Part shown: positions 30,448-61,927 of the stretch, one piece after another
Numbering within the stretch: the stretch's first letter is position 1
Layout of the letters: each line of letters begins with the position of its first letter
From: an uncultured Gemmatimonadales bacterium
GTDB lineage: Bacteria > Gemmatimonadota > Gemmatimonadetes > Gemmatimonadales > GWC2-71-9
NCBI GenBank assembly: GCA_963810165.1
Contig: CAWEMG010000017.1
Coordinates: forward strand, 7,229 to 71,228
Reading direction: 5' to 3'
Length of the DNA stretch: 64,000 nt
The notes under the pieces: model-generated
The model's database searches: none
Seen by the model: only the letters and a program-made list of their open reading frames with translations
Told to the model about the DNA's origin: nothing
Position numbers and translations under genes: made by a program

Positions 30448-31328
30448 TCATTCCGTCGCCTGATCCAGCTCCCCCAGTGCCTTGAGCACCCTGTCGGGCT
30501 GTTCCTCCTGGACGAACTGCCCCGCACCGGGAACGCTCTCCATGGAGAAGTCCGGGATCTTTTCCTCCAGCAGCTCCCGCTCGTCCTCTTTCACCCCGCT
30601 CGGGTGCGTCGACACCGCCGACCAGGAGCCGCACCGGCACCTGGATCTCGTGGAGCTGATCCTGAAGCGACTCGGTCTCTTTCGACTTGGACATGCTCCG
30701 GAAGGCGTCGATCGAGCCATTCAGGTCGGCTGCCTGGCCCGCGGTGTATTCCCGGATGACCCGCGGCGTCACCCAGCTGGTATCGCCCGAGTTCTTGACG
30801 ATCTCCTTGCGCACGTCGTGGCGGAGCTTGCTTTCACTGACGGCCAGCTTCGTAATAAAGCTGCCCATCCGCAACGCCTTCTTCATTCCTGGCGTCGCCG
30901 CGCTCTCGACGGGTCCACCATCGATGGAGAGGATGCCGCGGACCATGTTCGGGGTTGGCGATGGCAAGCCGCAGCGCGATGGAGGCACCAGTAGAATTCG
31001 CGATGAACAGGGCCTCGGTGATGCCGAGCTGCTCGAGAGCCTTGCTTATCCGCTGGGTCTGGGCGGTGAACGAATAATCCGCCTTGGGAGGATGAGAGGA
31101 GCGGCCGTATCCGAGGGGTTCGATCACAATGCAGCGATAGCCGCGCTGGACCAGCGGGCCGGTGACCTTTCGATACCCGTAGGCGCCGCCGAAGATCCCC
31201 GGGATCAGGACCACCGGCTCGCCTGAGCCGATCACCGTCGTATGGAGGATTTCGCCCGGAGCGACTTCGACGTGGTGAACCACGGCGCTGTCGAGGGAGG
31301 CCACAAGCGCCAGGCCGATGAGAATCAT
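30448..31328 (-). CDS. alpha/beta hydrolase, two frameshifts
   Basis: VVLIPGIFGG, nucleophile elbow IANSTGAS. Sequence continues through three frames. Breaks at G4 30951-30954 (IANP | NMVRGILSIDGG) and about 30612-30620 (LLVGG | STHPSGVKEDE). Confidence 0.7.
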
Positions 31329-52409: not shown

Positions 52410-53226
52410 CTTGGTTCCTGGGGGTTAGGGTGTGACCTGGGTCGCCCAGTGCGACGGGAGCAAGATGGGTGGGCCGGGTCGCCGGGTAAGTGACCAGAGT
52501 CACGGGTGCTCTCCGCCCCGCGGGTAGCTCCAGAGGACGGGCGGATCCTGGATTGTGCGACTATTTTTAGTCGATGCCCCTGTCCGCTTTTCATCCCGTC
52601 GTCGCCCGCTGGTTCGAACAGAAGTTCGGCGAGCCCACCCCTCCGCAACGCCTTGGCTGGCAAGCCATTCGGGAGGGCCGGCACACCCTCATTGCGGCCC
52701 CGACCGGGTCCGGAAAGACCCTGGCGGCGTTCCTGGAGGAGCTGGACCGGCTGTTTCGCGAGGGGATGGAGTCCCCCCTGCCGGATGAGACCCGGGTGGT
52801 CTACGTCTCGCCCCTGAAGGCCCTCAGCGCCGACATCCATCTCAACCTGGCCGAGCCCCGCCGGGAGATCCGCCGGCTGGCGGAGGAGATGGGGTACCAG
52901 GCCCCCCGGATCACAGCCGCCATTCGCTCGGGCGACACGCCCACGTCCGAGCGGGCCGCGATGCTGCGAAAGCCCCCTCACATCCTGGTCACCACCCCCG
53001 AGTCGCTCTATCTCATGCTCACGGCCCGGCGAAGCCGCGAGATGCTCCGCACTGTCCGCACCGTGATTGTGGATGAGATCCACGCCGTGCTGGAATCTCG
53101 CCGGGGGGCGCATCTGGCGCTTGACGCTGGAGCGCCTGGCCCACGTCGCCCAGCAGCCGCTGCAGCGGATCGGCCTGTCGGCCACGATGGAGCCGATCGA
53201 CGAGGTCGGACGGTGGCTGGTTGGAG

Positions 53227-53313
53227 GCGGGAACGCGAAACAGCGGAACGAGCGGAACAGGCAGGGCTAACTCACCCCGTCACGACTTCTTCCGCCCTTT
53301 CCGCCTCTCCCGC
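53227..53313. repeat. hairpin element with (AGCGGAACG)n-type arms inside lhr
   Basis: gcgggaacgcgaaacagcggaacgagcggaacagg versus cttcttccgccctttccgcctctcccgc (imperfect reverse complement). Carries TAA 53268-53270 in the incoming lhr frame. Confidence 0.55.
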
Positions 53314-54440
53314 TATCATAAACGCGGGCCACCGCCGCGAAGCTCGACCTCGCCCTCGAGCTCCCCGGCTCCCCCCTCGAAGCGGTCATGTCAGGCGAGG
53401 TGTGGGGCGAGGTGTACGACCGGTTGGCCCAGCTGATCGAGTCGCACAAGACCACGCTCGTATTCGTGAATACCCGCCGGCTGGCGGAGCGGGTCTCTCG
53501 CCACCTGGCCGAACGGGTGGGAGAGGATGCCGTCACCGCACACCATGGCAGTCTCTCCAAGGAGACTCGCCTCGACGCCGAGGAGCGGCTCAAGACCGGC
53601 AAGCTCAAGGCTCTGGTGGCGACCGCCTCCCTCGAGCTCGGCATCGACATCGGCCACGTGGATCTGGTTGCCCAGCTGGGCACGCCGCGGCGGATTTCCA
53701 CCTTCCTGCAGCGGGTGGGTCGCTCGGGGCACACCGTGCATGGCACTCCCAAGGGCCGGCTCTTTCCGCTCAGCCGTGACGAGCTGGTCGAATGCACCGC
53801 CCTGCTCCAGTCGGTTCGGCGGGGACAGCTCGACCGGCTGGTCATTCGGGACAAGCCGCTGGATGTGCTGGCGCAGCAGGTCGTGGCGGAGTCGGCGGGC
53901 GAGGACTGGGATGTCGAGGAGCTGTTCCAGCTGGTCCGGCGGGCCTATCCCTACCGTGACCTTACTCGCGCCGAGTTCGACGAGATCGTTGCGATGCTGG
54001 CCCAGGGCTTCTCGACCAGCCGGGGCCGCCGGGGCGCGCTGATCCATCACGACACGGTGAACGGGAAGATCAAAGCCCGGCGCGGCTCCCGCATGCTCGC
54101 GATTACCTCCGGCGGCGCCATCCCCGATAACTCGGATTTCCGGGTCATTCTCGAGCCGGACAACACCTTCATCGGCACGGTGAACGAGGATTTCGCGGTC
54201 GAGAGTCTCCAGGGCGACATCTTCCAGCTGGGCAATACATCCTGGCGGATTCTGCGGGTTCAGCAGGGAACGGTGCGGGTGGAAGATGCCCACGGCCAGC
54301 CGCCCAGCATTCCGTTCTGGCTGGGCGAGGCACCGGCCCGGAGCAACGAGCTGTCTACCGCGGTGGCGGAGCTCCGGGGAGAGGTGGAGAAGCGGTTGGA
54401 GGACCGGGAGGGAGCGAAGCAGTGGGTCGAAAGTCGCTAC

Positions 54441-54535
54441 TGTTGTCATCCTGAGGGAGCGAGCGACCTGAAGGATCGCCCTGGACCGAGCCAGAGATCC
54501 TTCGCTGCGCTCAGGATGACACCGCTCATCACTAC
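54441..54535. repeat. GTCATCCTGAGC-type palindromic element inserted in lhr
   Basis: Arms 54445-54477 (gtcatcctgagggagcgagcgacctgaaggatc) and 54496-54520 (gatccttcgctgcgctcaggatgac). CTAC at 54437-54440 and 54532-54535. Confidence 0.7.
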
Positions 54536-56503
54536 AGCGCAGCCGCAGCTGCGCATCAACTGGTCGAGTACCTCGGCGAGTCCAAGCGACTGCTGGGCAC
54601 CCTGCCGACCCAGGAGACCATCGTCGCCGAGCGGTTCTTCGACGAAGCCGGCGGGATGCAGCTCGTCATCCACTCGCCCTTCGGGAGCCGAGTGAACCGG
54701 GCCTGGGGACTGGCTCTGCGGAAGCGGTTCTGCCGTCAGTTCAACTTCGAGCTCCAGGCCGCCGCCACCGAAGACGCGCTGCTCCTGTCGCTCGGGCCGC
54801 AGCACTCCTTCCCGCTCGACACGGTCTTCAAGTTTCTCCACCCCGACACGGTGGAGGAGATCCTGGTGCAGGCCCTGCTCGACGCGCCCATGTTCGGGAC
54901 CCACTGGCGCTGGAACGCGACCATCGCGCTGGCAATCGCGCGGAGCCGGAACGGCCGCAAGACTCCGCCCCAGATTCAGCGGATGCAATCCGAGGACCTG
55001 CTGGCCGCGGCATTCCCCCACGCCGTCGCCTGCCTGGAGAACATTCCGGGCGACCGCGAGGTGCCGGATCATCCGCTGGTACGGCAGACGATCGACGACT
55101 GCGTGCACGAGGTGATGGACCTCGAGCTGCTTACGACGGTGCTCCGGAGGATCCAGTCGGGCGAGATCCGCTACGTCGCCCGCGACTTGCCCGAGCCGTC
55201 ACCGCTGACCCACGAGATCCTGAACGCGAGACCCTATGCGTTCCTCGACGATGCACCGGCCGAGGAGCGGCGGACTCTGGCGGTCCACACCCGCCGCGCC
55301 TTCGAGCCCTCGTCCGCCGACGACCTCGGCGCCCTGGACCCGGCCGCGATCGACCGGGTTCGGGACGAGGCCTGGCCCGACCCGCGCGATGCCGACGAGC
55401 TGCACGACGCGCTGCTGACCTCCGGCTTCCTCACCGAAGTGGAAGGGATCTCGGGTCGGGACGGCGTGTCGTGGTTGCCCTGGTTCCAGGAGCTGAAGGA
55501 TGCCGGGCGAGCGGACCGGGTAACCTTGGCCGATGGCGAGGTTCTGTGGGTGGCAACGGAGCGGCTGGGTGAAGTAGGCGGGGCAGCGGGGCAGCGGGGC
55601 AGCTGGGCAGTGGGGCCGTCTCAGAAGAGGCTGCTTCGCGAGCTCTTCAGAGGCAGGCTCGGGATCGTCGGGCCAACCACGGCCGCCATCGCTGGCCGCG
55701 TCGCTGAACGTGGACGAATCCGATGCCGACATCGCTCTGGCGGCGCTGGAGGTCGAGGGTGTGGTCCTCCGCGGCCATTTCAGCCCCCGCAACGGCGGAC
55801 CGGCCACCCTCGAGTGGTGCGACCGCCGTCTGCTGGCGCGGATCCATCGCTACACCCTCAACCGGCTCCGGGCCGAGATCGAGCCGGTCAGCGCGGCTGA
55901 CTTCATGCGCTTCCTGTTCGCGTGGCAGCGGGTGGATCCGGACGAGCACGCCGCCGGGCTGGAAGGTCTCGCCGCCGTGATCACGCAGCTGGACGGCTTC
56001 GAGGTGCCGGCTGCCGCCTGGGAGAGCGAGGTGCTCTCGTCCCGGGTGGCGGAGTACGATCCCACTCTGCTGGACACCCTCTGCATGATGGGGCGGGTGG
56101 CGTGGGGGCGGACAGGCGGGCGGCGCGGACGGCGCGGACGGGCGGTCCGATTCGGTCCACGCCCATTGCGCTATTCCTGCGGGAACACCTGGGCGACTGG
56201 CTGCGGGATAGTCCTGAGGCCGAGTCGCAGCTCTCCAGCTACGCCGGCATCGTGAAGCAGACGTTGGAGCAGCGGGGCGCCTCGTTCTTTCATGAGCTGA
56301 CCGCCATGTCGGGTTTGCTACCAACGCAGGTGGAGCAGGGTTTGAGCGAGCTCGCGGGCCTGGGACTGGTGACCTCCGACAGCTTTGCCGGACTTCGAGC
56401 GCTCATCACGCCTTCGAGCAAGCGCAAGCCGCTGAGCGGCGCAACTCGACGATACCGCACTGCGCCGGTGGGAATCGAAACGGCGGGGCGATGGTCACTG
56501 CTG

Positions 56504-56587
56504 GGCGGGCGGGCGGACAGTCGGACGGAGGGACAGACAAGAATGATCAAGGGGATGACCGTCCGCCCGTCCGTCTGTCCGCCCGTC
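56504..56587. repeat. hairpin with GGGC/GGACNG repeat arms inside lhr
   Basis: ggcgggcgggcggacagtcggacggagggacagac ... gtccgcccgtccgtctgtccgcccgtc, loop about 22 nt. The lhr frame changes across it. Confidence 0.55.
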
Positions 56588-57137
56588 AAACCGAGCTGCT
56601 GGCAAAGACACTGCTCCGCCGCTACGGGGTGGTGTTCAAGCGGCTCCTGGCCCGCGAGACCGGCGCCCCACCCTGGCGCGACCTGCTCATGGTCTATCGC
56701 CGCCTGGAGGCACGGGGCGAGATCCGGGGCGGCCGCTTCGTCGCCGGCATGTCCGGGGAGCAGTTCGCCCTTCCGGAGGCCGTAGGCCAGCTGCGATCAT
56801 TCGGCGCCTGGACGGCGGCGGCCGGCTGATCGCGCTGAGCGCCGCCGATCCGCTCAACCTGACCGGGATCATCACGCCGGGCGACCGGGTCACCGGCATC
56901 ACCCGCAACCGCATTCTCTATCGGGACGGCGTGCCGGTGCTCGCCGCCGAGGCCGGTGGAGATGAGGCCGATCGGCAGCGAGGAGTCGCCTACCCCCGAG
57001 ATGATCCAGGCCCTGGTGCGTAAATCGATCAGCCCGGCGTTGCGGGCGCGACTCGCCATGTCGGGGAACCTGGCCGCCAGCACGCCGCTCAACCGGAAGC
57101 CTGGCAAGCGCCGGACGCGGCCGGAAAAGGTGTCGTC

Positions 57138-57540
57138 TTGATCATTCAGTGGCTCTACGGCTACAGCGACGTCGCCCTGCTCCTGATGCGACTGCTGGTA
57201 GGGCTGGTGTTCGTGACCAGTGGCTGGAGCCACGTGAAGGATCCCGTGGGTCGAGGCCAGAGCATCGGCGCGAGCCCCGGCTTCACCCGCTTTCTCGGAG
57301 TCGCCGAGCTGGCCGGGCGGGCTCGGAGTGGCGTTCGGAGTGCTGACCCAGTTCGCGGCGCTGGGGCTGATCCTGATCATGCTGGGTGCAATCCAGAAGA
57401 AGATCGTCGTCTGGAAGACAGGGTTCTGGGGCAAACACAGCGACGGCTGGCACTACGATCTCATGTTGATCGTCATGTGTCTGGTGATTGCGACGACGGG
57501 CGGAGGCCGGTACGTGTTGGAGTGGGCTATTGGCTATTAG
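57138..57540 (+). CDS. DoxX-family membrane protein, frameshifted
   Basis: LLLMRLLVGLVFVTSGWSHV, then FGVLTQFAALGLILIMLGAIQKKI in ORF 57328..57540. Break about 57320. TTG 57138 overlaps the lhr stop. Confidence 0.7.
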
Positions 57541-58733: not shown

Positions 58734-58765
58734 CACCGTTCCGCTCTCTAAATGAAGCGGAAGGT

Positions 58766-58825
58766 GTCACCCTGAGCGCAGCGAAGGGGCCAGAACTGAA
58801 GATCCTTCGCTTCGCTCAGGATGAC
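58766..58825. repeat. GTCATCCTGAGC-type palindromic element
   Basis: gtcaccctgagcgcagcgaagg ... gatccttcgcttcgctcaggatgac, between the lipoprotein gene and the vgb-like gene. Confidence 0.7.
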
Positions 58826-58840
58826 AATCAAGGAGTAACG

Positions 58841-59845
58841 ATGCGATCAATCATTACAGCAGCCATTCTCGCTGCCACCCTGGCACCGGCAACCCAGCTA
58901 GCGGCGCAGGTCCCCATCAAGGAATGGCCGGTCCCTTACGCCGACTCACGCCCGCGCGACCCGTACGTGGACAGCCAGAACCGGGTCTGGTTCGTGGGCC
59001 AGGTCGGCAACTACATCGCCTACCTCGACCCGGCTAGCGGGAAGTTCCGCCGCTATGAGATCGAGGACGGCGCCCTGCCCCATAACCTGATCGTCGACAA
59101 GAAAGACATGATCTGGTACGCCGGGAACGGCAACGGGCACATCGGCAAATTGGATCCGGCCTCGGGTAAGGTCACCCGCTATCCGATGCCGCCCGGGGTG
59201 CGGGATCCCCACACGTTGATCGCCGACGGCAAGGACAACATCTGGTTTACGGCTCAGCAATCGAACTACGTCGGGCGACTCAACACCAAGAGCGGGAAGG
59301 TGGACGTGGTCCAGGTTCCGTCACCCAACGCCCGGCCATATGGGATCGAGGTGGATTCCAAGGGGCGGCCCTGGTTCAACGAGTTCGGCAACGAGAAGAT
59401 CGGCACTGTCGATCCGGCGACGATGAAGATCACCGAGTACTCGATGCCCAACGACCGCTCCCGCGGCCGACGGATCGCGATCACGTCGGACGACCGGATC
59501 TGGTACGTGGACTACACCCGGGGCTACCTCGGCCGGTTCGACCCGGGCTCGAAGCAGTTCAAGGAGTGGGCTCTGCCGGGCGGAGCGGGTGCGCTGCCAT
59601 ACGCGATGTCGATGGACGACAAGGACCGGCTCTGGCTGGTGGAGACCGGATCGCAGCCGAACCGGTTCGTGGGGTTCGACCCGAAGACAGAGAAGTTCTT
59701 TGGCATCACGCCGGTGCCGAGCGGGGGCGGCACGGTGCGGCATATGATGTTCGACGAGAAGAGCGGGCAGATCTGGTTCGGAACCGACAACAACACCGTC
59801 GGGCGGGCAGAGGTGACGGCGGCGAACTCGCCGCCGTCATCCTGA
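58841..59845 (+). CDS. Vgb-like (streptogramin-lyase-type) beta-propeller protein, secreted
   Basis: AAGGAG 58830-58835, ATG 58841, signal peptide. Repeated blades (PHNLIVDKKDMIWYAG, PHTLIADGKDNIWFT, PYGIEVDSKGRPWFNE, RIAITSDDRIWYVD, PYAMSMDDKDRLWLVE). Confidence 0.7.
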   Translation: MRSIITAAILAATLAPATQLAAQVPIKEWPVPYADSRPRDPYVDSQNRVWFVGQVGNYIAYLDPASGKFRRYEIEDGALPHNLIVDKKDMIWYAGNGNGHIGKLDPASGKVTRYPMPPGVRDPHTLIADGKDNIWFTAQQSNYVGRLNTKSGKVDVVQVPSPNARPYGIEVDSKGRPWFNEFGNEKIGTVDPATMKITEYSMPNDRSRGRRIAITSDDRIWYVDYTRGYLGRFDPGSKQFKEWALPGGAGALPYAMSMDDKDRLWLVETGSQPNRFVGFDPKTEKFFGITPVPSGGGTVRHMMFDEKSGQIWFGTDNNTVGRAEVTAANSPPSS

Positions 59846-59915
59846 GCAATCACTGTCATCCTGAGCAATCACTGTCATCCTGAGCGCAGCGAAGGATCCC
59901 TCCGAGTGGGATGAC
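59836..59915. repeat. GTCATCCTGAGC-type element with triplicated left arm
   Basis: 19-nt unit gtcatcctgagcaatcact at 59836-59854 and 59855-59873. Full left arm 59874-59899. Degenerate right arm to 59915. Confidence 0.7.
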
Positions 59916-61092
59916 AGAGCCTTCGTTGGCTCACGGAGGCGTCTGTCAGCTCGGGCGCATTCAGTCTCCGGGTCCCCAGTTGCACTGTTTGCGCCTCGGG
60001 TAGCTCCTCCCCCGCAATCCCCAGATCTCTGAACCGTCGGGCGGAGACCAGCACCCTTCCTTCCAGCGACCCGATCGCGTCGTTGTAGCTGTCCACCGTT
60101 CTGACCAGCGACTTCCGCAGGTCCTCGAAGTGCCCGGCCATGTGGCCCAGCCGCTCGTACAGCTCCCGTCCCAGCCGGCTGATGTCCTGCGCGTTGCGGG
60201 CGATGCTCTCCTGCCGCCAGCCATAGGCGATGGCGCGAAGCAGTGCGATGAGGGTGGTAGGGCTGGCGGGAATCACCTGCTCGCCCACGCCGAACTCGAT
60301 CAGCGAAGCGTCGTGCTCGCAGGCGGCGCTGAAGAAGGTCTCGCCCGGCAGGAACATCACCACGAAATCGGGCGCGGGCTGAAACTGGTTCCAGTAGGCC
60401 TTCGCACCCAGCTTGCTCATGTGGTCCCGCACCTGGCGGGCGTGCTTCTTCAGCAGCAGCTCGCGCGCGCCGTCGTCGCCGTTGCAGTCGGTCGCGTCGA
60501 GATATGCCGACAGCGGGGACTTGGCGTCCACCACGATGGTCTTGTCGCCGGGGAGGCGGATGATCAGGTCGGGCTGAAGTCGCCCGTCCTCCGACTCCAC
60601 TCGGGCCTGCTCCAGGAAGTCGCAGTAGTCCAGCATCCCTGCCAGCTCCACCACTCGCCGCAGCTGGATCTCGCCCCAGCGCCCCCGCACCTGCGGCGCC
60701 CGCAGCGCCTTCACCAGATTGCCGGTTTCGGCCTGGAGCGCCTGCTGGCTGCGAGCCATCGCCTTCACCTGCTCCAGTAAGCCGGAGTAGTGGGAGACGC
60801 GGTCCTTCTCCACCTGCTGCAGCTTGACGTCCACTCGGGCGATGGCGTCGTGGATCGGCCGCACCAGGTCGCCCACCGCCTTCTGGCGCCGCTCCAGGTC
60901 GAACGAGGCGGACTGCTGGAAGGCGCCCAGCTTGGTCTGCGCCAGGTCGAGAAACGACTGGTTGTTCTGCCGCAGCGCCTCGGCGGAGAGGGAGGCGAAC
61001 GCATCCCTGAGCCTGCGTTCATTGAGCCAAACCATCAGGCCGCCGGCGGCGGCTCCTATGATCAGTCCGAGCAGCAGGGTCGCGATATTCAT
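59875..61092 (-). CDS. rmuC: DNA recombination protein RmuC
   Basis: N-terminal TM, coiled coil, RGRWGEIQLRRVVE, IVVDAKSPL and DFVVMFLPGE nuclease-like core. The last about 15 codons (..[16 protein letters not shown]) are read from the repeat element. Confidence 0.9.
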   Translation of the reverse strand: MNIATLLLGLIIGAAAGGLMVWLNERRLRDAFASLSAEALRQNNQSFLDLAQTKLGAFQQSASFDLERRQKAVGDLVRPIHDAIARVDVKLQQVEKDRVSHYSGLLEQVKAMARSQQALQAETGNLVKALRAPQVRGRWGEIQLRRVVELAGMLDYCDFLEQARVESEDGRLQPDLIIRLPGDKTIVVDAKSPLSAYLDATDCNGDDGARELLLKKHARQVRDHMSKLGAKAYWNQFQPAPDFVVMFLPGETFFSAACEHDASLIEFGVGEQVIPASPTTLIALLRAIAYGWRQESIARNAQDISRLGRELYERLGHMAGHFEDLRKSLVRTVDSYNDAIGSLEGRVLVSARRFRDLGIAGEELPEAQTVQLGTRRLNAPELTDASVSQRRLCHPTRRDPSLRSG

Positions 61093-61133: not shown

Positions 61134-61167
61134 TGTCATCCTGAGCGTGGCGAAGGGCTCAGGATGA
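61134..61167. repeat. short form of the GTCATCCTGAGC palindrome
   Basis: GTCATCCTGAGC-gtggcgaagg-GCTCAGGATGAC, a perfect 12-bp stem, in the divergent rmuC / membrane-protein promoter region. Confidence 0.75.
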
Positions 61168-61225
61168 CAACACCTCGATCTGACAGTACCTTATCCGGCG
61201 TCCCATCCCACAACTCGGAGGCTCC

Positions 61226-61786: not shown

Positions 61787-61821
61787 GCGGGGCAGGGGGG
61801 CGGCGGGGAGGGAAAGTCGCT

Positions 61822-61890
61822 GTCATCCTGAACGAAGTGAAGGATCTCTCGATTGCACGCCGAGGGATCCTTCGCTGCGCTCAGGATGAC
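61822..61890. repeat. GTCATCCTGAGC-type palindromic element
   Basis: gtcatcctgaacgaagtgaaggatc ... gatccttcgctgcgctcaggatgac, between convergent genes. Confidence 0.75.
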
Positions 61891-61927
61891 ATCTAGCCGC
61901 TCACACGTCCCGCGCCCTTTGCCGCTG

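Follow-up and report, generated by a model that had tools for sequence, protein, structure and literature searches.

Does the palindromic repeat that lies inside lhr in this window (the whole 64,000-nt stretch of DNA that was analysed) disrupt the helicase gene, whose reading frame breaks there, or is it carried by the gene as part of its coding sequence? The sequence-only reading had proposed a 95-nt MITE/REP-like insertion bounded by CTAC repeats, with a possible 4-nt target duplication. We favour a different explanation, to which as a whole we give a probability of about 0.78: the repeat would be an old insertion, translated in frame as a tolerated loop, the frame break would be an artefactually missing base, and the CTAC pair would not be a target-site duplication.

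By sequence comparison, the organism belongs to Gemmatimonadales and the host gene is lhr, which encodes the DNA-repair helicase Lhr:

52574-57141, plus strand: lhr, long-form Lhr helicase of about 1520 codons, in nine successive frame segments (tblastn of orthologues, six-frame translation).

Each frame segment is 60-95% identical to orthologues by tblastn, and six-frame translation and tblastn revealed no in-frame stops and no large deletions within the segments. Nine frame changes lie in these 4.6 kb (near 53121, 53270, 53338, 54455, 55690, 56123, 56560, 56798 and 56958), a density above the window average. Pfam assigns DEAD, Helicase_C, WH_Lhr, DEAD_assoc, WH3_Lhr and WH4_Lhr domains to the intact orthologues L006 and L019, and Lhr matches PDB 7LHL and 5V9X, both mycobacterial, with E values of about 1e-68 to 1e-70. 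Pfam on these two orthologues, tblastn to the window and the PDB matches together give the helicase core plus the C-terminal WH3/WH4 domain set of an Lhr helicase. The product of the window gene aligns with the solved structures across the insertion site, where the solved proteins have a short linker and the window gene has an extra element-encoded segment of about 30 residues.

Two side observations concern the gene and its homologues. The short stretch at 53226-53341 (LVGGG to IINAGHRRE) is variable: when set against L001 and L002 it has several small indels as well as two frame changes, in an alignment that is of low confidence there. The 120 best Lhr protein matches, out of about 8000 homologues, are all of at most 875 residues, while intact orthologues have 1400-1640 codons; many of these matches, on long contigs, begin at one common Met (MSGEVW) or finish in out-of-frame tails. 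The list of matches seems enriched for fragments and frameshifted calls, and could wrongly suggest that lhr is commonly truncated.

What lies inside the gene is supported as a copy of a dispersed REP/MITE-like palindromic element that has inserted into lhr. Its parts are as follows:

54444-54521, no strand assigned: palindromic element copy, 78 nt, between terminal inverted repeats TGTCATCCTGAG / CTCAGGATGACA (arms as in four intergenic copies and at least 120 metagenome contigs).
54444-54477, plus strand: left arm, 34 nt; beside the 26-nt arm of the family it shows a 9-nt bulge (GCGACCTGA) and is one base short (comparison with the consensus and with the right arm of this copy).
54455-54458, plus strand: most likely place of the missing base (-1), its exact position deduced from the left arm against the complement of its own right arm and from frame logic.
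54478-54495, plus strand: variable loop, 18 nt (sequence, fold).
54496-54521, plus strand: right arm, 26 nt, matching the consensus and read in the outgoing frame as (E)ILRCAQDD (comparison with L001 and other window copies).
54522-54537, plus strand: stretch with the right-hand CTAC, weakly aligned (10 of 16) to a second partial right arm, GCGCTCAGGATGACA, in L001 (comparison with L001).

The terminal inverted repeats (54444-54455 and 54510-54521) are perfect over 12 nt and the inner arms (54461-54477 and 54496-54512) have 76% complementarity; the element alone folds at -41.6 kcal/mol, and in a 115-nt context its folding z is -3.66. Measured against the family, the right arm matches at 26 of 26 positions, and the left arm is perfect over the 12 terminal nt before its bulge and missing base. 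All 26 nt of the right arm recur in the right arm of the copy at 61866-61891, and the first 25 are identical to the L001 arm, which is translated in frame there. The stretch that follows (54522-54537) is in frame in both genomes as well, as TAHHYS in the window and GGGAQDDN in L001. The hairpin arms described from sequence alone are thus real and the same as those of intergenic hairpins in the window, with an extent of 54444-54521 and four more copies. The idea of a MITE/REP-like insertion stands insofar as a dispersed palindromic element occupies a site in lhr that is element-free in orthologues (L005, L007, L009, P0006 and P0011); the CTAC duplication attached to it does not, as discussed below.

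The family is defined by 26-nt inverted arms, TGTCATCCTGAGCG[A/C]AGCGAAGGATC, around a variable loop. Copies are 46-161 nt long; their loops span about 0 to more than 60 nt, often lengthening the stem, and their hairpins fold at -24 to -48 kcal/mol. The exact 25-mer GTCATCCTGAGCG[A/C]AGCGAAGGATC is found in at least 120 metagenome contigs ranging from 34 to 73% GC, and the exact 25-nt arm also in 50 IMG/VR contigs (L205-L254) predicted to be viral or proviral. With at most one mismatch allowed, the window has 12 matches to the 11-mer GTCATCCTGAG, where 1.5 are expected and none of 100 shuffles reaches 12; these matches mark out the four copies outside lhr. Copies occupy five loci in the window and are also present in L001, L002, L004, L006 and L019. 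The four window copies outside lhr all lie between genes:

58765-58826, no strand assigned: copy upstream of a Vgb-lyase-like gene whose real start is probably the ATG at 58841 (orthologous remnant in L001).
59835-59916, no strand assigned: array of three tandem half-arms and a partial element, between convergent genes (orthologous array in L001 and L004).
61134-61169, no strand assigned: short copy with a 13-bp stem and small loop (arm match, fold).
61821-61891, no strand assigned: full copy between convergent genes (arm match; synteny with L001 ends there).

Two genes end inside half-arms of the array at 59835-59916: the Vgb-lyase-like gene, with its TGA at 59843-59845, and rmuC, with its stop at 59875-59877 on the minus strand. 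The half-arms of the array run as GTCATCCTGAGCAATCACT twice and then a partial element, an arrangement that L001 and L004 share, and half-arms in tandem are frequent in the family (window 59836-59884, L087). The window ceases to be syntenic with L001 at an element copy (61808-61821 / L001:18206), possibly the breakpoint of a rearrangement. The lhr copy and the copy at 61821-61891 also have in common a left flank, GAAAGTCGCT (54430-54439 / 61811-61820), and a right flank, CCGCTCA(T)CAC (54523-54533 / 61897-61906), the latter offset by 5 nt; GAAAGTCGAT abuts an element copy in an unrelated metagenome locus, L120, as well. In one subfamily the mobile unit may therefore be longer than the palindrome.

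Neither the whole window at gathering thresholds nor the element at E values up to 10 matched Rfam beyond noise such as miRNA and snoRNA models, and literature searches for the DNA and peptide strings of the element found nothing relevant and no description of the family. The REP-like regions of Planktothrix reported in PMC4766695 have a different sequence. Within 1.5 kb of the copies at 120 loci we saw no recurrent ORF family, transposase or other gene, and no RAYT (Y1 transposase) gene was seen near these loci or among the scanned ORFs of the window.

Could CTAC nevertheless be the target of a recent event? On this account a MITE-like 95-nt insertion (54441-54535) duplicated CTAC and disrupted lhr, so that precise excision would give back the ancestral gene. 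Its arithmetic holds: CTAC is present at 54437-54440 and 54532-54535, and deleting 54441-54535 joins ..AKQWVESRY exactly to the outgoing frame. The joined peptide is of plausible length, and the short W..QLVEYL spacing that the sequence-only reading gave for Lhr proteins is roughly right, with 12 residues from W to QLVEYL in the joined version, 15 in element-less close relatives and about 13 in most other Lhr proteins. However, the CTACs do not abut the inverted repeats, being 3 nt from the left end of the element and 10 nt from the right. In a flank census of 71 copies (53 full metagenome copies plus those on viral contigs), 70 had usable flanks; among these other copies, two have CTAC at most 16 nt from the left end, two at most 16 nt from the right end, and none has it at both ends. 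For the 52 of 53 full metagenome copies with enough flank, direct repeats in the flanks reached at best 0 to 4 nt, no more than in shuffled flank pairings, and the only conserved flank bases in these 52 are T at -1 and A at +1, which extend the inverted repeat. Reading CTAC as the reverse complement of a REP 'GTAG tag' fails in the same way, because the other copies lack it.

The deletion is not special either. In the same lhr interval, six frame-restoring deletions are bounded by direct repeats of at least 4 nt, where about 3.2 are expected by chance, and two of the six are better solutions with 5-nt repeats (TCGCT and TCATC). With nine frame changes across lhr, the 95-nt deletion mends the frame only locally. 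Its boundaries also conflict with the orthologue alignment, in which homologous residues run across the segment, just the observation that the sequence-only reading had named as counting against it: L001/P0004 and P0001 have translated residues that are homologous to the right arm and to the next 14 nt, and L002 and L006 carry the whole element in frame. Since the element is at the same site in a genome as distant as 74% nucleotide identity (L006), the insertion is not recent. The predicted empty site, which would read ..GTCGCTAC directly followed by AGCGCAGCC.., belongs to an account that is already contradicted and that we consider highly improbable. These comparisons indicate that CTAC is not a target-site duplication and that the pair arose by chance.

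The same orthologues argue that the insertion in lhr is old: in related Gemmatimonadales this site holds the complete element or what decay has left of it, a single arm. The whole element is in frame in L002, within an intact 873-codon ORF, and in L006 (SHPERREAS...LPQDD), within an intact 1637-codon ORF. Only the right arm is retained in L001/P0004, P0001 and L004, the last of which reads ..VDPSTASRPQDD... at this site. L001, the locus of P0004, is 85.5% identical to the window and syntenic with it over 18.6 kb. Because the other window copies have orthologous counterparts in L001 and L004, the element copies of the window appear to be old residents rather than recent arrivals.

The lhr copies may go back either to a single old insertion followed by losses or to repeated insertion. 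Element-bearing and element-free sequences are interleaved on a rough neighbor-joining tree, and a single ancient insertion requires clean losses because P0011, a close relative, is without the element. The 25 nt of the right arm that the window and L001 share are identical at all 25 positions in surrounding DNA that is about 85% identical (p about 0.02), a hint that constraint, gene conversion or re-insertion, and not neutral decay, shaped it. A string in P0005/L003, CPERSEGA, was considered as a second intragenic copy and set aside as a chance match in an out-of-frame tail.

Where in the protein does the element fall? Of the Pfam domains of P0002, WH_Lhr ends at residue 479 and DEAD_assoc begins at 583, and the site lies between the two. 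AlphaFold2 (113 aligned sequences, mean pLDDT 75) models residues 529-556 of P0002 as coil with pLDDT below 50, between confident helices at 513-525 and 560-580, and the element-encoded peptide corresponds to residues 532-561. The insertion site is thus predicted to be a disordered linker between the two domains. Its length varies among the 120 homologues, with the anchors FWLGEAP and ERFFDE 63 to 109 residues apart. Each arm has two of its three frames open (CHPERSEGS or VILSEAKDL on the left, ILRFAQDD or SFASLRMT on the right), which makes in-frame carriage easy.

We therefore picture a palindromic repeat that makes no target-site duplication and that would sit in the Lhr linker between the winged-helix domain and DEAD_assoc, in the frame in which its arms encode CHPERSE.. 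and ..ILRCAQDD. Translated in frame, it would add about 30 residues to the protein, which the helicase would tolerate as a disordered loop at its surface, and the insertion would not be gene-disrupting; the frame break of lhr would be a separate matter, a single base missing from the left arm. Translation as a harmless extra loop is the most likely fate of the element, judging from the structural model and the orthologues, and the loop is presumably without function.

Translated carriage has a precedent in finished genomes. An AT-richer version of the element, 75-80% similar, lies in frame inside RefSeq-annotated genes on Planktothrix agardhii plasmids: pglX (BREX) of strain PCC7805 carries an element array, ..VIPQTPTVIPQTPTVILSETKDLSGVVKDNRDSSQAQNDRNNAQND.., and an MmeI-type gene of strain No.66 has two full element units. 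These arrays (L255:2460-2640, NZ_LR882951.1; L256:200-499, NZ_LR882964.1) differ in unit number between strains while in frame, so an array of this kind changes length in place without leaving the frame.

What, then, breaks the frame of lhr? In the incoming frame the left arm yields C-H-P-E and so agrees with the intact L002, where that frame gives CHPERSEGS; in the outgoing frame the right arm yields EILRCAQDD, as it does in L001, P0001 and L019. A -1 shift must therefore fall within the element, somewhere in 54455-54494. At the point where the family consensus and the complement of the right arm have GAGCGCAG, the left arm has GAGGGAG, which makes it one base short, and a single C added after 54455 yields a continuous protein across the element. 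From these comparisons we infer that the frame break in the element is a single missing base in the left arm near 54455-54458. The caveat of the sequence-only reading, that an in-frame insertion plus one indel error could produce the same picture, has thus become the reading favoured by the evidence, with the arms in frame on each side and one base short on the left. Programmed frameshifting was rejected, given eight other single-base frame changes in lhr and intact orthologues that read straight through.

The missing base could be an error of the assembly or a mutation of the gene. In a six-sequence alignment of lhr we counted 7 private 1-nt indels for the window, 8 for L001 and 7 for L004, at differing places in each, and none for L005, L006 and L002. 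L001 and L004 were taken as long-read from their names alone ('contig_NNNN'; L004 is an MFD bin) and L005 and L006 as short-read from their k141 (MEGAHIT-style) names; a platform was assigned to these four only, L002 being a short contig. The window-specific substitutions in lhr number 34, 20 and 89 at codon positions 1, 2 and 3 (62% at third positions), a bias that indicates purifying selection on lhr. Frame breaks of this sort also split an aminotransferase (near 1860) and an alpha/beta hydrolase (near 30953) of the window, a protein kinase and BrkB at two points each, and a UvrD-like gene at three. Frameshifts were sought with a codon-usage Viterbi scan, used instead of a GC3 run-length scan that was too noisy for such calls; its 50 'switches' include real gene boundaries and were counted only when backed by split proteins. 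Many window genes are split between frames (e.g., at 1860, 30953, 33129, 35297, 35484, 36724, 47682, 48002, 51618 and 51771), among them a carboxymuconolactone-decarboxylase-like gene; the UvrD-like gene is of the helicase/exonuclease type and the kinase a Ser/Thr kinase.

Based on the nine changes in lhr, the other split genes, the restriction of private indels to long-read-style-named contigs and the third-position bias, we regard the lhr frameshift as most likely artefactual: the assembly would be error-prone, probably built from long reads, and this would be one of its many 1-nt indel errors. If lhr were instead a genuine, recently inactivated pseudogene, the element frameshift and the eight others would be real mutations. 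Nine frame changes in 4.6 kb, denser than in the rest of the window, would fit such decay, as would the placement of the indels outside long homopolymers and the fact that lhr is broken in L001, L003 and L004 too. Yet the gene shows none of the marks of relaxed selection expected in a pseudogene (even substitutions over codon positions, stops, large deletions): there is no position-2 excess relative to L001, the segments retain their identity to orthologues, the k141-named and short-contig orthologues are intact, and at least five other window genes are split likewise. A pseudogene is accordingly an unlikely explanation to us, though some real decay of lhr may have occurred beside the artefact. 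Read-level support is needed for any finding that rests on a frameshift in this window, because the window seems to stem from an assembly rich in indels.

The in-frame loop of the favoured explanation is not confined to one repeat family. L019, a Thermoanaerobaculia MAG, has the GTCATCC element, which is of the same family as the window copies, in the same Lhr linker (L019:6733-6825) within an intact 1420-codon ORF, and a GTAG...CTAC REP dimer, read as VGSPRCGDRTAQRAVPT, occupies that linker in L204 (L204:8763-8812), P0039 and P0055. Other palindromes lie there at L024:6444-6510, L041:10239-10330 and L057:3203-3262, and the arms of the L024 and L041 palindromes recur elsewhere in the analysed data. 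At the sequence level, these cases show that the Lhr linker has been colonised repeatedly by unrelated hairpin repeats in several phyla.

Such recurrence raises the question of whether repeats land preferentially in this linker or whether the insert is under selection, for instance as an RNA or DNA hairpin that modulates expression or as a useful flexible spacer. The independent in-frame palindromes at one site would be expected from either, and so might the perfect conservation of the right arm between the window and L001 and the reported concentration of REPs in replication and repair genes (PMC3733652). Outside lhr, moreover, none of 53 randomly sampled metagenome copies is convincingly intragenic, the spanning-ORF candidates all looking like non-coding read-through. 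But survivorship in a disordered linker of variable length (63-109 residues, low pLDDT) explains the pattern equally well, and copies decay to half-arms in several lineages. Preference or selection is thus a doubtful explanation compared with the tolerated loop. A still more sweeping picture strikes us as speculative and improbable, namely a linker genuinely preferred or selected by at least four unrelated families in at least three phyla, and a GTCATCC element that would be pan-bacterial and phage-borne with invariant 25-nt arms, mobilised by a trans-acting enzyme without target duplication, and expanding and contracting in frame in Lhr, PglX and MmeI-type proteins.

How does the element compare with known systems? 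Its mode of carriage resembles that of the Rickettsia palindromic elements (RPEs), dispersed palindromic repeats of about 100 nt that are found in frame in unrelated genes and translated as peptides compatible with fold and function (reviewed in PMC10969869). The likeness, by analogy, lies in the in-frame insertion into an ORF: the element-bearing ORFs of L002, L006 and L019 are intact, and the loop is predicted to be disordered. The element differs from RPEs in that it probably belongs to another sequence family, has arms of only 26 nt around a variable loop, is mostly intergenic in our sample, and has hosts that, unlike Rickettsia, live freely in soil and water (Gemmatimonadota, Acidobacteriota, Cyanobacteriota).

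REPs also occur inside genes, in particular replication and repair genes and helicases, where they encode 20-30 residues, and neutral placement in flexible linkers was offered as one explanation (Di Nocera et al., 2013; PMC3733652). Like REPs and REPINs, the element is a short hairpin repeat found mostly near 3' ends, between convergent or co-directional genes, without target duplication; its long-hairpin inverted doublets lie near gene ends, and the window copies are between convergent genes or next to gene ends. Unlike them, it has no GTAG or CGTC end tag, only the conserved T...A (GTAG falls within 16 nt in 1 of 70 copies on each side); its arm is not itself a palindrome; and the 25-nt arm is identical across genomes of 34-73% GC, far wider than lineage-specific REPs. 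A true GTAG-tagged REP dimer does occupy the same linker in L204. Bacterial MITEs such as Correia, ERIC and Nezha form occasional in-frame fusions with host ORFs (PMC10969869) and share with the element a small, non-coding, multi-copy form with terminal inverted repeats, but the element has no fixed target-site duplication (52 copies equal to shuffled flanks, no CTAC pair in 70), and no parent IS with matching ends, nor any recurrent ORF, was seen at the 120 loci.

An annotator would do best to enter a single lhr gene here whose in-frame loop is encoded by a repeat, rather than a gene that a mobile element has disrupted; the frameshifts stand as a warning on the quality of this assembly. The case would add an example from free-living bacteria to the small set of palindromic repeats translated in proteins (RPEs, intragenic REPs). 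The main interest would then lie not in gene disruption but in the repeated colonisation of the Lhr linker together with the breadth of the family, whose exact 25-nt arms extend across genomes of 34-73% GC and onto viral contigs.
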